Positions 11,482 through 15,194 of a DNA stretch of 64,000 bases are shown here, piece by piece (position 1 is the stretch's first letter; each line of letters starts with the position of its first letter). The position numbers were made by a program, and so were the translations under genes. The notes below the pieces were generated by a model that ran no database searches, was not told the origin of the DNA, and saw nothing but the letters and a program-made list of their open reading frames with translations. Source of the DNA: Acidimicrobiia bacterium (GTDB taxonomy: Bacteria; Actinomycetota; Acidimicrobiia; Spongiisociales; ZC4RG35); assembly GCA_035544575.1 (NCBI GenBank), contig DATKEC010000044.1:2851-66850 (forward strand), written 5' to 3'.

Positions 11482-12075
11482 TCATCCGTCGAGAAGTCTG
11501 CGCTTCTGGCTCTCGAACTCTTCCTGGCTGAGAATTCCCCGGTCACGGAGTTCGGCCAGTCCGGCGAGCTCGTCGGCAACCGACGATCCACCCCGGCGGA
11601 GTTCCACGGTGCGTTGCTCTCGTTGCTGGTAGATCAACGATTGGAGACCCTCAGGGTCGGGGATGTCCTGGTAGCGGCTCTGGCCCGTCTCACCGGCCGA
11701 CTCGATGACGAGATCGCCTGAGCGGATGAACCGTTCGAGCAGCGATTGACTGAACGCCACGTTCGTGATGCTCTCGAGCGGGATCTCGACACCCGAACGC
11801 GAGAACACACCCGCCCGATAGATCACTCGCTCGTCGGTGATCACGTATTGGGTGGTCGCCCAGTCGGCGACGCGTTTGACGCTGAGGATGATCCAGACGG
11901 CGACCCCGCCCAGAATCAGCAGCCACCGAGCGGCTCCATCGAGCTGGACGACCGCGGCGACGACCACCCCCAGGAGCACCAGGAACAACGCTCCGGGAAG
12001 AATGAGGAACTGCCAGTGGGGCCGAAACTCCTTGACGACCATCTCACCGGGACTCAACAACCGTTTCGGATACAT
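11482..12075 (-). CDS. PH-domain (bPH_2) membrane protein with C-terminal SHOCT
   Basis: MYPKRLLSPGE..RPHW, 2 TM, YVITDERVIYRAGVFSR, IPLESITNV, SHOCT-like DRGILSQEEFESQKRRLL. Leaderless TAGCGT-N7-ATG. Confidence 0.88.
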   Translation of the reverse strand: MYPKRLLSPGEMVVKEFRPHWQFLILPGALFLVLLGVVVAAVVQLDGAARWLLILGGVAVWIILSVKRVADWATTQYVITDERVIYRAGVFSRSGVEIPLESITNVAFSQSLLERFIRSGDLVIESAGETGQSRYQDIPDPEGLQSLIYQQREQRTVELRRGGSSVADELAGLAELRDRGILSQEEFESQKRRLLDG

Positions 12076-12151
12076 GCTCGGGACGCTAGCGGGAGGCACG
12101 TGTCCCGCGACGACGAAGCGCCATCCTCGTGCCGAACCGGCAGATCCAGAC

Positions 12152-12571
12152 GCGAAGAAGCCCCGAGGAAGCTTTGGCTTGCGCCGCCACCCTCTCGGGG
12201 CTCTCCGAGTCATCGGTGCCGCGACCCGTTTCCGGGCCGGCTGCAGCCGAGACAAGCGAGGAATCTTGCGACTCCCCACGTGACGGCCGGTTTCGTCGCC
12301 GAAGCGTCGACCCGTTCCGCCAGACCGCTGAACCGACAGCGAAGCTCGAAACCCGAAGATCCTCACTCACGCCCTCGGCTCAAAGGCCGTTGCGTCTCAA
12401 CCCCCGCCGAAGCGAAGGCCTCAGACGCCCCTCGTACGAGGATGGTGCATCGGTTCCCCGATCCACCCGGAAGCGTCGTTTCCGACCCATCCGTGGTGCG
12501 GACCGCCGACCACGTTCGTCGCCGTCCCGCTCGACCCCTTTCGAGGCCGTGCCACCGATCGCTCGGTGACA
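12152..12571 (-). ncRNA. Putative ~420-nt structured ncRNA (RNA-B), unassigned family
   Basis: About 11 hairpins capped by GNRA/UUCG loops, readable as such only on the minus strand; long-range closing helices; own promoter; 3' hairpin followed by CUUCUUC. Ends are estimates. Confidence 0.72.
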
Positions 12572-12577
12572 GGTGGA

Positions 12578-12654
12578 AAGCTAAACGGTGGGCCAACGAT
12601 CGGGAACCGAATCAGGTCGCCATTTTTTCGCGACGCTCGGTGAGTTTTCGCGAC
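12578..12654 (-). promoter_or_regulatory. Promoter P2 for RNA-B plus upstream direct repeats
   Basis: TTCCCG (12606-12601)-N17-TAGCTT (12583-12578). GTCGCGAAAA twice, at 12625-12634 and 12645-12654. Confidence 0.55.
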
Positions 12655-12711
12655 AAGTCGCTGGTGGCTGGGGAACGCGGCGAGACGCTCATGACCGGGA
12701 CCCCCGAACGC

Positions 12712-12860
12712 GGGAAACCCCGAGAAAGTATCGGCCGAAGCCTCAACCCTCTCGGGGTACCCTGCTGGTCGCACTCCGACCCGAAGGCCGGTCTACACCC
12801 AGCTTCCGAAGGACCCTCTCGGGTTCTTCATCCCTGCTGCGAGGTCGCCCTCGCTTCAGT
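12712..12860 (-). ncRNA. Putative ~150-nt structured ncRNA (RNA-A), short paralog of RNA-B
   Basis: Starts ~7 nt after a strong -10. Hairpins GCGAGG-GCGA-CCUCGC, CCC-GAGA-GGG, CCGGCC-UUCG-GGUCGG. 40-nt 3' domain is 30/40 identical to that of RNA-B. Confidence 0.7.
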
Positions 12861-12867
12861 GATCGGA

Positions 12868-12943
12868 AACCTACGGTCTGATCCGGGTGACGTCAAGGCG
12901 AACAGACGGTGTCTTTTCGCGGTCCGGAGGGAAGTTTCGCGAC
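12868..12943 (-). promoter_or_regulatory. Promoter P1 for RNA-A plus upstream direct repeats
   Basis: TTGACG (12896-12891)-N17-TAGGTT (12873-12868). Repeats ACCGCGAAAA and GTCGCGAAAC at 12914-12923 and 12934-12943. Confidence 0.72.
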
Positions 12944-12944
12944 T

Positions 12945-13784
12945 TCAGCTCGCCACGGCGATCCCCGCGTCTTCGAAGGCGGGACAGATCGCCTGAAACG
13001 AGCACCAATCGCACAGTCGGCCGGGACGCGGCGGAAACCGCTCCTCGCTCATCGCCCGCTCGATGGCGCTCCACAGAGCCCGCAGCTGGCGGTCCATGGC
13101 GTCGAGCTGCTGGTCATCGACCTCGAGGCGGTACATGGTGGGCCCGTTGAGGTACATGAGCCGTAGCTCCCGCGGCGTTTCGCCGGTGCGGCGCCGAACG
13201 AGCAACCCGTAGATCTTCAACGCAAAGAACGCCGGAACCGCGTAACGCTCGGGAGGCGCCTTGCCCGTCTTGTAGTCGGTGATCACCAGCCGACCGTCGG
13301 CACCTCGATCGATCCGATCCAGAATTCCCCGGATGACGATGCCGTCGAGATCCTCGGTCATGTCGAGTTCTCGATCCATCGGCTCGACCTCTGCGGGGTT
13401 CTCCACCGAGAAGTAATTGGCGAGCAGCGTCAGACTCTCCAGGCCCCACTCACGCTCATGGTCGACGGATGCGAACAAGCCGGAGTACTCCTCGTCGGCA
13501 CGCACTTCTGTCCACGCCTGCCGGAAGAGGTCATACAGCATCTCGGGCGTACGCTCGTTGGCATCGAGGTCGAAGAGCCGCTGCAGCGCCAGATGCGCCG
13601 TCGTCCCCCGGGCCTGATAGGCGGTCACCGGCTCTGGGAGCCGGTCGATGCTGCGGAACTTGAACAACTGCGGACAGATCTTGAAATCACTCGCCCGCGA
13701 CGGCGAAAGCCTCTCCAACGACAGGCCCTCCCCGGCCGGTGGCGCAGTCGCCCGGCTGGCGATCGACAGATTCCCAGACTCCAT
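12945..13784 (-). CDS. RecB-family PD-(D/E)XK exonuclease with 4-Cys Fe-S staple
   Basis: LSPSRASDFKICP, RGILDRID, ITDYKTGK, QL-like ALKIYG, LCDWCSFQAICP. Leaderless TAGGGT-N6-ATG. Confidence 0.92.
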   Translation of the reverse strand: MESGNLSIASRATAPPAGEGLSLERLSPSRASDFKICPQLFKFRSIDRLPEPVTAYQARGTTAHLALQRLFDLDANERTPEMLYDLFRQAWTEVRADEEYSGLFASVDHEREWGLESLTLLANYFSVENPAEVEPMDRELDMTEDLDGIVIRGILDRIDRGADGRLVITDYKTGKAPPERYAVPAFFALKIYGLLVRRRTGETPRELRLMYLNGPTMYRLEVDDQQLDAMDRQLRALWSAIERAMSEERFPPRPGRLCDWCSFQAICPAFEDAGIAVAS

Positions 13785-13919
13785 GCCCGCACCCTATCGA
13801 ACCCGAATGACAGAAGTGTGATTCCCCAGAGACCCCCTCCGTCCCCGCCGCTCCACATCGGGCCGCCTCCCCCACACCGCCGGACTCCGTCCGGATCGGG
13901 GAGGAGACCGGACGATCTC

Positions 13920-15194
13920 TCAGGGGAAGATGCCACGTACCAGCTTGGCGTCGGTGACGCGTTGGATGCCCTTGATGAGCGCGGCGGTGCGCATGTCCAC
14001 GTTCTCCTTGACAGAGATCTGAAGCACGTCGCTGAACGCCGTCGTCATGATCTCTCGGAGCCGCCCGACGATCTCGTTCTCGGACCAGAAGTACGCCTGC
14101 ACGTCCTGGACCCACTCGAAATATGAGACCGTCACACCTCCGGCATTGGCGAGGATGTCAGGAACGATGAACACACCGCGCGACCGCAGGATGTCGTCTG
14201 CGGCCAGCGTCATCGGGTTGTTCGCCCCCTCCACGACGAGACGGGCCTTGATGTCAGGTGCGTTGTCGGCGGTGACGACACCCTGGACTGCGGCGGGAAT
14301 CAGGATGTCGCAGTCGACGAGGACGACCTCCTCGTCGGCGATGTGATCAGCCTTCGGATATCCCTCCAGCGTCCCGTTCGAATCGACCCAGTGGGCGGCA
14401 TCGTTGACGTCGAGCCCGTTCTCGTCGTAGATCCCGCCGGTGATGTCCGAGACCGCCACCACCCTCAGGCCGAGTTCGTCGGCGGCGATCGCGGCGTAAC
14501 GGCCGACGTTTCCGAATCCGTGGATCGAGACCTTGGCGTCCTTGACCGGCATGTTGAGATGCGAACAGGCCGGCGTGATCAGCGACACCACGCCACGACC
14601 GGTCGCCTCTCGCCGGGCGACCGAGCCACCCAGCGATGGGGGCTTGCCGGTGACGACCGCTGGAACCGAGTGGCCCACATGCTGGGAATACGTGTCCATC
14701 AGCCACGCCATGACTTGTTCGTTCGTCCCGAGGTCCGGAGCGGGAATGTCGGACTGCGGGCCGATGACATTGATGATCTCCATCGTGAAGCGGCGGGTCA
14801 CCCGCTGGAGTTCGGAGCGGCTCAGTTCCCGGGGGTTCACCCGTACGCCACCTTTGGCGCCGCCGAACGGAACCCCGACGATCGAGCACTTCCAGGTCAT
14901 CCACATGGAGAGTGCCGCCACTTCACCCAGCGTCACGTCGTCGGCGTAACGGATACCGCCCTTCGTCGGCCCCATCGTCGTGAGGTGTTGGACTCGGTAG
15001 CCGAACAGCGTCTCGACGGTGCCGTAGTCGTCGTGACGGAATGGAAAGGTGACGATGGTGCAGCGCTGCGGAACCCGGAGCCGATCGGCCACGTTGTCGT
15101 CGAGGTTCATGAACTCGGCGACCCGATCGAACTGCGCCACTGCCTCGAGGTACATCGGACTGTCGAACTCGTGGGTCAACTCTTCCGAAGCCAT
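13920..15194 (-). CDS. gdhA: Glu/Leu/Phe/Val dehydrogenase (glutamate dehydrogenase)
   Basis: GPTKGGIRY, GGAKGGV, PAPDLGT, TGKP, GFGNVG, VEGANNP, ANAGGVTVSYFEW. Confidence 0.95.
   Translation of the reverse strand: MASEELTHEFDSPMYLEAVAQFDRVAEFMNLDDNVADRLRVPQRCTIVTFPFRHDDYGTVETLFGYRVQHLTTMGPTKGGIRYADDVTLGEVAALSMWMTWKCSIVGVPFGGAKGGVRVNPRELSRSELQRVTRRFTMEIINVIGPQSDIPAPDLGTNEQVMAWLMDTYSQHVGHSVPAVVTGKPPSLGGSVARREATGRGVVSLITPACSHLNMPVKDAKVSIHGFGNVGRYAAIAADELGLRVVAVSDITGGIYDENGLDVNDAAHWVDSNGTLEGYPKADHIADEEVVLVDCDILIPAAVQGVVTADNAPDIKARLVVEGANNPMTLAADDILRSRGVFIVPDILANAGGVTVSYFEWVQDVQAYFWSENEIVGRLREIMTTAFSDVLQISVKENVDMRTAALIKGIQRVTDAKLVRGIFP

Follow-up and report, generated by a model that had tools for sequence, protein, structure and literature searches.

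A predicted 420-nt RNA gene of Acidimicrobiia and its short sibling: an apparently undescribed, class-wide RNA family

Background

RNAIII of Staphylococcus is a 514-nt RNA with 14 hairpins, transcribed from a promoter that is preceded by two direct repeats with a periodicity of roughly 21 bp. 6S RNA is 150-210 nt long and has paired 5' and 3' ends; it binds the holoenzyme form of RNA polymerase, and Ms1 binds the core. [quoted passage not shown]

The locus compared here with these and other RNAs lies in a 64-kb stretch of Acidimicrobiia DNA, the whole of which is called the window below. An earlier note on this DNA had picked out a structured RNA of unknown family, RNA-B, and had proposed that it is a stand-alone non-coding RNA (ncRNA), possibly an Ms1/6S-type analogue or a 'large ornate RNA'. 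Acidimicrobiia abound in soil, freshwater, marine and wastewater communities; to our knowledge their RNA regulators are almost wholly uncharacterized. We are also aware of few bacterial ncRNAs longer than 400 nt whose function is unknown, and each of those solved has, as far as we know, given a new ribonucleoprotein or regulatory principle.

Results and discussion

The RNA-B locus

The earlier note had put RNA-B at 12152-12571 on the minus strand. This is essentially correct, and the sequence is as it was described; the refined predicted ends are ~12572-12566 (5', downstream of the -10 hexamer) and ~12151-12155 (3', past the terminal hairpin). The gene lies in an 870-bp minus-strand gap between a nuclease gene and a bPH_2+SHOCT gene (Table 1). 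It shares this gap with a sibling that the note had missed, RNA-A, which makes RNA-B one of two genes in a family that appears to be class-wide. RNA-A was located by nhmmer with an A-type profile (E = 8e-33). One A, one B and their two promoters are all that the profile searches matched in the 64 kb, and the motif CCCGAGAGGGT, which occurs three times in the intergenic region of RNA-A and RNA-B, is found nowhere else in the window. A scan of the window for tRNA and tmRNA found neither.

Table 1. Positions of the RNA genes, their promoters, the helices of RNA-B and the flanking genes in the window
Feature	Position	Strand	Description
PD-(D/E)XK (RecB/Cas4-like) nuclease gene	12945-13784		Upstream flank of gap
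RNA-A promoter	12866..12944	minus	Boxes in 12915-12941; -35 TTGACG; -10 TAGGTT at 12868-12873
RNA-A, short sibling	12708..12862	minus	~155 nt, four hairpins; 3' hairpin as in RNA-B
RNA-B promoter box 1	12645..12652	minus	CGCGAAAA, centred at ~-77
RNA-B promoter box 2	12625..12632	minus	CGCGAAAA, centred at ~-56; starts 49 nt upstream of -10
RNA-B -35	12601..12606	minus	TTCCCG; 17-bp spacer
RNA-B -10	12578..12583	minus	TAGCTT; family consensus TACnTT
RNA-B	12151..12572	minus	Predicted ~420-nt non-coding transcript, long sibling of the family
H1, 5' terminal hairpin	12550..12571	minus	UGUCACCGA-GCGA-UCGGUGGCA
H3/H4	12498..12530	minus	GCGGG...CCGC around CGAC-GAACGUG-GUCG
H5 + H6	12445..12493	minus	Two GNRA-capped hairpins, tips GGAAAC and GGGGAAC
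H7	12430..12441	minus	CCUC-GUAC-GAGG (CCUCGUACGAGG); perfect palindrome, self-complementary loop
H8/H9	12392..12428	minus	GCGUCUGA...UUCG...GAGACGC; hairpin with conserved internal loop
H11/H12	12282..12321	minus	GGCGG..ACGG..CG-ACGC-UUCG-GCG..CCG..CCGUC
H13	12257..12278	minus	UGGGGAGUC-GCAA-GAUUCCUCG
CGGCUGC linker	12243..12249 (derived by hand)	minus	Unpaired, between H13 and H14
H14	12222..12239	minus	CGGCCCG-GAAA-CGGGUCG
H15/H16, 3' hairpin	12153..12207	minus	GGAGAG-CCCCGAG-A-GGGU-(3x3 purine loop)-GGC-GCAA-GCC-...-CUCGGGG-CUUCUUCG
-10 hexamer of bPH_2+SHOCT gene	12083..12088	minus	TAGCGT, 7 nt before ATG
bPH_2+SHOCT gene	ATG at 12075	minus	Downstream flank of gap

Does the RNA belong to a known family? 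The earlier note had held that it does not and had proposed an Rfam search. At the gathering score Rfam 15 gave no match in the 64-kb window and none in 10 related loci. With the threshold relaxed to E <= 10 over 11900-13100 and in one related locus (L022), only chance-level matches far below threshold appeared (F6, RsmW, sbcD, H19, Scr1601 and miRNAs); the RsmW model, for instance, scores 15.7 bits at RNA-B against a threshold of 52 (E = 6.3). The covariance models of OLE, GOLLD, ROOL, HEARO and raiA matched neither the locus nor the 10 related loci, and the family did not turn up in a full-text literature search on Acidimicrobiia ncRNAs and on the sequence strings CCCGAGAGGG and CGCGAAAA. 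The RNA-B feature is genuine and, it appears, has not been described before.

Fold and covariation

Folded as the minus-strand transcript, 12152-12571 has a minimum free energy of -239 kcal/mol, whereas dinucleotide shuffles average -195.5±5.7 (z = -7.7) and 0 of 100 match it; for the plus strand of the region z is only -2.6. The window copy and 12 relatives of its subtype (68-96% identity) were then aligned over 513 columns, and RNAalifold gave a consensus of 116 pairs, of which 36 have compensatory changes. Local helices alone were kept in a curated structure of 112 pairs in 16 helices (H1-H16). In this structure 96.2% of cells are paired; sliding the 3' partners by 1-3 columns lowers the share to 37-50%. 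Compensatory changes are seen in 34 pairs, a number that shuffles (15.7±2.4) reach in 0 of 500 cases; the slid controls give 4-11. G-U pairs make up 12.1% of paired cells, and 16 of the 112 pairs in the window copy. Because G-U pairs are A-C mismatches on the opposite strand, the structure is restricted to the minus-strand transcript. The fold and the compensatory changes in the homologues bear out the earlier note's claim of selection on RNA structure on this strand, and the eleven hairpins that it listed are all among H1-H16 and are kept in the 12 relatives.

The compensatory changes are concentrated in H5 (5 of 10 pairs), H11/H12 (six pairs), H13 (7 of 9 pairs, with 99% of cells paired) and H14 (4 of 7 pairs). 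Elsewhere H6 has them in 2 of 9 pairs and H9 in two, pair 115-141 of H3 is GC in five sequences, GU in four and AU in four, and pair 221-255 of H8 is CG in eight and UA in four. Two hairpins do not vary at all: GACGAACGUGGUCG (H4) is identical in 13/13 sequences, its 7-nt loop included, and so is H7, which is also present in the related locus L003. Few unpaired elements are invariant or nearly so, namely the GAACGUG loop, the GUAC loop, the GUCUGA/GAGAC internal loop and the CGGCUGC linker; the last is at least 90% conserved, is unpaired in the curated structure and is a candidate contact or seed site.

On this model RNA-B is best described as a row of ~14 consecutive, very stable local hairpins, mostly capped by GNRA or UUCG. 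The hairpin loops of the window copy are GCGA, GAAA, GAACGUG, GGAA, GUAC, UUCG and GCAA, and among the B units as a whole GNRA or UNCG caps are strongly over-represented, closing 568 of 1356 candidate tetraloop hairpins.

The earlier note had gone further and had closed a multibranch core with the long-range pairs GUCGAGCGGG/CUUGUCUCGGC and GACGGC/GCCGUC. The complementary segments do exist in the window copy. A multibranch closure by them is not supported: several of the long-range pairs form in only 6-8 of the 13 sequences and clash with the covarying H3 and H11, and H11/H12 competes with the GACGGC/GCCGUC pairing and beats it. A blind helix scan of the alignment found no credible long-range helix and no supported helix closing the 5' end on the 3' end. 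Those long-range candidates that scored high are wobble artefacts rich in G and C, in competition with local helices that covary. Two other pairings were set aside: that of the H2 GGGGU with the CGGCUGC region, proposed by RNAalifold, was replaced by a local H2 with compensatory changes of its own, and that of the GAACGUG loop with a downstream CACGUG is possible in the window copy and is not conserved. RNA-B lacks the 11-nt GNRA tetraloop receptor, and neither a tertiary motif nor a conserved multi-helix junction was found in it. With a body of 234-596 nt that varies between genera, 'large ornate RNA' is an overstatement.

The same results bear on the suggestion that RNA-B is a 6S/Ms1-type analogue, an RNA that would mimic open promoter DNA and sequester RNA polymerase. 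It is a large and stable RNA from an actinobacterial lineage with a strong-looking dedicated promoter, and the window has no 6S match, though 64 kb says little about a whole genome. The RNA may be abundant, as the note had proposed; the promoter suggests as much. In place of a rod with a central bubble (PMC4191392), there is a chain of local hairpins with no closing helix, and the length of the relatives spans 234-596 nt. The 6S model (RF00013) matches neither the window at the gathering score, nor 11900-13100 even at E <= 10, nor the 10 related loci. The neighbours also differ from those given for Ms1 (PMC9130861). Since RNA-B has neither the rod-and-bubble fold nor the synteny of Ms1, we do not file it with these RNAs and consider the analogy improbable.

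The family across Acidimicrobiia

To collect the family, loci were anchored on the neighbouring nuclease gene, which gave 80 Acidimicrobiia genome loci and 12 contigs with close nuclease homologues; one more contig, the sole match of a metagenome scan for the RNA-B core pattern, was added. The family hairpin is present in 88 of these 93 loci, and a ~55-nt hairpin with CCCGAGAGGG recurs in nearly all of them. The nuclease gene stays beside the RNA genes, in either orientation. Viral contigs were also scanned for the 3' hairpin; none of the 16 matches has the closing stem or the promoter boxes, and we take them as chance.

The whole gap with RNA-A and RNA-B can be aligned in the closest relatives only. 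The logic of a repeated unit was first read in locus L022 and then confirmed by systematic extraction: promoter boxes, -35 and -10 elements, a GNRA-capped 5' hairpin directly after the transcript start (found family-wide), a hairpin body that varies with lineage, a 3' hairpin and a U-rich tail. By length the units are of two kinds: A RNAs measure 148-177 nt and B RNAs 234-596 nt. Copy number ranges from 1 to 6 between genomes; A followed by B is the commonest arrangement (46 loci), and some genomes have arrays of 5-6 units.

Pairing in both classes is supported by covariation. RNA-A folds with z = -5.8, and among 67 distinct A-type homologues 19 of 32 pairs are compensatory, against 9-12 in slid controls. 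In the majority B subtype (32 sequences) the figures are 33 of 75 against 11-19. The B body differs strongly between genera in length and sequence, the number of hairpins varies, and some relatives repeat identical GAUCUUCGGAUC hairpins inside one RNA. In the majority B subtype a hairpin with an invariant C-rich loop, GGGUCCCCGGCC, precedes the terminator and its flanking stem covaries; the window subtype has a GAAA tetraloop in that place. A and B share only the shape of the 5' hairpin and the 3' hairpin, and comparison of the two classes found no common unpaired motif.

There are thus at least two paralogous RNA genes with common promoter and terminator modules across species, as in a sibling sRNA family. 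On this comparative evidence RNA-B is one gene of a putative sibling RNA family, so far undescribed, that is class-wide in Acidimicrobiia.

Promoters and 3' hairpin

Promoter and terminator of the family were defined by comparative conservation. Every unit has two CGCGAAAA boxes, 21 bp apart and centred near -77 and -56, followed by a sigma-A-type promoter for which 145 distinct sequences give the consensus TTGACG (-35), a 17-bp spacer and TACnTT (-10). In 141 of 142 units box 2 stands 48-49 nt from the -10 hexamer. In the 64 kb the box pair occurs twice, against an expectation of 0.01, and each occurrence precedes one of the RNA genes. The promoter profile matches at 12576-12655 for RNA-B (E = 2.5e-6) and also finds the RNA-A promoter (E = 1.4e-8). 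The -35 of RNA-B agrees with the consensus at four of six positions, and a simple promoter scan with a strict consensus misses this promoter.

All A and B units carry the strong 3' hairpin in nearly unchanged form (GAGAG-CCCCGAGAGGG...CUCCCUCGGGG-UUUCU). It has a 3x3 purine-rich internal loop and is conserved in sequence, beyond what pairing would ask for. The tail of RNA-B, CUUCUUCG (UUUCUCGC in relatives), has 4 U in 8, and a simple terminator scan with a threshold of 5 U in 8 does not call the hairpin. Terminators with poor U-tails are known in mycobacteria. The hairpin is likely an intrinsic terminator. Its sequence is too well conserved for a terminator role alone, and possibly it is a recognition element as well.

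A stand-alone, non-coding gene

Could the region be something other than an RNA gene, either palindromes or repeats that matter at the DNA level, or a protein-coding region missed in annotation? Long ORFs do cross it on both strands, a 416-aa ORF lies opposite the RNA in the window, and gene callers place ORFs on that strand in some relatives. These called ORFs have no Pfam family. In the RNA-B alignment, 89 of 97 indel runs (counted pairwise) are not multiples of three and so break the frame, and substitutions show no codon periodicity. A conserved protein ORF, which the earlier note had named as grounds for refuting an ncRNA, was not found among the relatives: the longest frames switch frame or strand, and their start and stop positions are unconserved. 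The G-U share, the strongly strand-asymmetric folding and the compensatory changes, which keep pairing, also speak against this reading, which we regard as hardly credible. A small dual-function ORF within RNA-B was likewise rejected, as no frame is conserved among relatives.

A second alternative is that RNA-B is a cis-acting leader or attenuator of the bPH_2/SHOCT operon, riboswitch-like, with the 3' hairpin as expression platform. In most loci the PH gene follows B on the same strand at a distance of 54-121 nt, and within the terminator stem CCC-GAGA-GGG could form a small alternative hairpin. The PH gene, for its part, has a -10 hexamer placed for a leaderless mRNA (Table 1), and a TAnnnT hexamer recurs 6-7 nt before the PH start codon in most loci where that gene follows RNA-B; it is predicted from this to have its own leaderless-type promoter, which would bound the RNA locus. 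In some loci B precedes a DUF222/HNH gene or an ABC transporter gene instead. A units, which have no coding gene after them, are bounded by the same promoter and terminator modules, and arrays of units exist. Nor is the body conserved across genera as an aptamer would be. The leader reading is therefore very unlikely. Because the PH gene has a leaderless-type promoter and B sometimes precedes other genes, we treat RNA-B as a transcription unit of its own, with its own conserved predicted promoter and terminal hairpin. This is how the earlier note had seen it.

Probable mode of action

The best explanation of the locus as a whole, to which we give a probability of roughly 0.55, is that RNA-B is an independent ~420-nt RNA gene of a sibling family and acts in trans, most likely by binding protein. 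Both siblings would be driven from the two boxes (~-56 and ~-77), by an activator or by phased bent DNA, and would be co-regulated through their common promoter architecture; their transcription would end at the 3' hairpin. RNA-B would then most likely bind, sequester or scaffold protein. Contact would be made through the internal loops in H8 and the 3' hairpin, through the GAACGUG loop and the GUAC loop at the tip of the H7 palindrome, and through the CGGCUGC linker, and the stable hairpins would add bulk and protect the RNA from nucleases. Three observations favour such a role: what is conserved lies in loops and internal loops, hairpin number drifts freely between genera, and some relatives repeat identical hairpins within one RNA.

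Several observations pull the other way. The gene context indicates no partner protein, the loops are mostly generic GNRA or UUCG, and the window copy has no repeated GGA motif of the CsrB type. The C-rich loop GGGUCCCCGGCC of the majority subtype fits a base-pairing seed better than a protein site. The -35 match of four positions in six and the weak U-tail count against the explanation as a whole.

The main rival is regulation by base-pairing, as by RNAIII or by sibling sRNAs, in which exposed seeds (CGGCUGC and GAACGUG, and UCCCCGG in the majority subtype) would pair with target mRNAs. Sibling genes with a common promoter and terminator are typical of such sRNAs (Qrr, LhrC, csRNA and OmrA/B), the C-rich hairpin of the majority subtype is invariant within a covarying stem, and the window subtype has two conserved unpaired runs of 7 nt. 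Against this, there is no family-wide seed, since the C-rich loop becomes a GAAA tetraloop in the window subtype; A and B have no obvious unpaired motif in common; and 420 nt of hairpins far exceeds what is needed to carry a seed. We consider base-pairing unlikely as the main mode, though it is the alternative to be taken most seriously.

The protein-binding reading can be extended, more speculatively. The A/B pair might be a global protein-sequestering system of the Acidimicrobiia's own, a counterpart of 6S/Ms1 or of CsrB with an unrelated fold and with a dedicated regulator at the CGCGAAAA boxes; or the 3' hairpin might be a ribonucleoprotein handle, conceivably one that works with the Cas4-like PD-(D/E)XK nuclease. 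We offer these ideas as doubtful.

The family is class-wide, is supported by covariation and is absent from Rfam 15, and the rigid geometry of its boxes (48-49 nt to the -10) could guide a search for the regulator and the genes under its control. What was observed suggests a regulator built as a string of hairpins and not an ornate, ribozyme-like fold.

Relation to known systems

Like OLE, GOLLD, ROOL, HEARO and raiA, RNA-B is longer than 400 nt and has many covarying helices. It differs from them in having no conserved multi-helix junctions or tertiary motifs and a body that is poorly conserved between genera.

RNA-B is like Ms1 and 6S in being highly structured, a few hundred nucleotides long and encoded by a single-gene unit, and it is predicted to be stable and stand-alone as they are; Ms1 is, moreover, actinobacterial too. 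It is set apart from both by its fold and its very variable length, from Ms1 also by its flanking genes and from 6S by the Rfam model. Its ~420 nt compare with the 150-210 nt of 6S and lack an end-to-end rod or central bubble, and in place of the Ms1 flanks it has PD-(D/E)XK nuclease and bPH_2/SHOCT genes.

The family resembles CsrB/RsmZ in that the number of hairpins varies between conserved ends, in that short and long paralogs coexist, and in that an identical hairpin (GAUCUUCGGAUC) is repeated several times in some RNA-B relatives. The loops are GNRA or UUCG, however, and not GGA.

Closer in organization are Qrr1-5, LhrC1-5, the csRNAs, RsmX/Y/Z and VR-RNA (with its VirR boxes). There, as here, paralogous RNA genes stand side by side with the same promoter architecture and terminator, and direct-repeat boxes lie upstream of the -35; the RNA-A/B family has 1-6 such copies. 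It has no sequence or structure match to any of these RNAs, comes in two size classes, the longer of which (234-596 nt) is far above typical siblings, and lacks a seed common to all members.

RNAIII is the best likeness for the long member alone. RNA-B too is a stand-alone RNA of several hundred nucleotides with ~14 hairpins in a row and two phased repeats at its promoter, and its relatives have a UCCC-type loop near the 3' end. Unlike RNAIII, it has no conserved small ORF and no supported long-range helices, and the window copy lacks the C-rich loop; the lineages are unrelated, and there is no homology. By analogy, then, and with no common descent implied, the family would come nearest to sibling sRNAs whose promoters depend on an activator, its long member being an RNAIII-like string of hairpins.

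Gene neighborhood and a sibling of RNA-B

Among the Acidimicrobiia loci fetched around homologues of the PD-(D/E)XK nuclease, the order GDH – nuclease – RNA-A – RNA-B – bPH_2/SHOCT gene is conserved (window 12945-15194 against L022 3001-5048); only the nuclease gene is flipped in the lineage of the window relative to the majority of other Acidimicrobiia. Under the majority arrangement, the double boxes fall within a divergent region common to the family unit (an RNA-A or RNA-B gene with its promoter) and the nuclease gene.

RNA-A, the short sibling just upstream of RNA-B, has a fold z of -5.8 and ends in the same 3' hairpin. Its promoter carries double CGCGAAAA boxes, as does that of RNA-B, with TTGACG at -35 and TAGGTT at -10. 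Sixty-seven distinct homologues were found, and compensatory changes are present. In most relatives the conserved tail that follows the 3' hairpin is UUUCUCGCG, a sequence similar to the CGCGAAAA box of the promoter in reverse complement; the likeness may be a coincidence, or the tail may be a third site for the factor of the boxes.

Features in the window and in related loci
Feature	Location	Strand	Remark
RNA-A with promoter	window 12708-12944	-	~155 nt, four hairpins
Palindrome CCUCGUACGAGG	window 12430-12441	-	perfect, 12 nt; invariant in 13/13 subtype members
Tails 3' of the hairpins	window 12151-12160 and 12708-12717	-
TAnnnT hexamer of bPH_2/SHOCT gene	window 12083-12088; ATG 12075	-	7 nt ahead of start codon
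ORFs from public gene calls	L083 1800-2405, L085 1106-1960, L086 1869-2588	-	strand opposite the RNAs
DUF222 (HNH-type) gene	L086/L087 2589-3986		foreign insertion
ORF dividing RNA-A from RNA-B	L022 1928-2680		methyltransferase-like, judged by reading the sequence alone

Arrays, insertions and neighboring ORFs

Four to six family units stand in tandem upstream of the nuclease gene in L047, L048, L051, L059 and L062. The L048 array reads A-B-A-A-A, with units spaced about 310 nt apart. Because the unit copies are near-identical, their sequences suggest recent duplication. Foreign genes have inserted between family units or directly after RNA-B in L086/L087 and L022. The ORFs called opposite the RNAs (200-284 aa) belong to no Pfam family; high G+C content most likely produced them as spurious calls. 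The hexamer-to-start geometry of the bPH_2/SHOCT gene recurs in most related loci, and its mRNA is probably leaderless.

Loops of the two RNA-B subtypes

The GUAC loop of CCUCGUACGAGG is self-complementary and the element could therefore mediate RNA dimerisation; alternatively, it could be a DNA operator within the RNA-B gene. The majority RNA-B subtype has an invariant GGGUCCCCGGCC about 60 nt ahead of the 3' hairpin (L009, L019, L020, L022, L077 and others), lodged in a hairpin that covaries in its outer stem; the element is absent from the subtype of the window. C-rich loops like GGGUCCCCGGCC serve sRNAs of Gram-positive bacteria as seeds.
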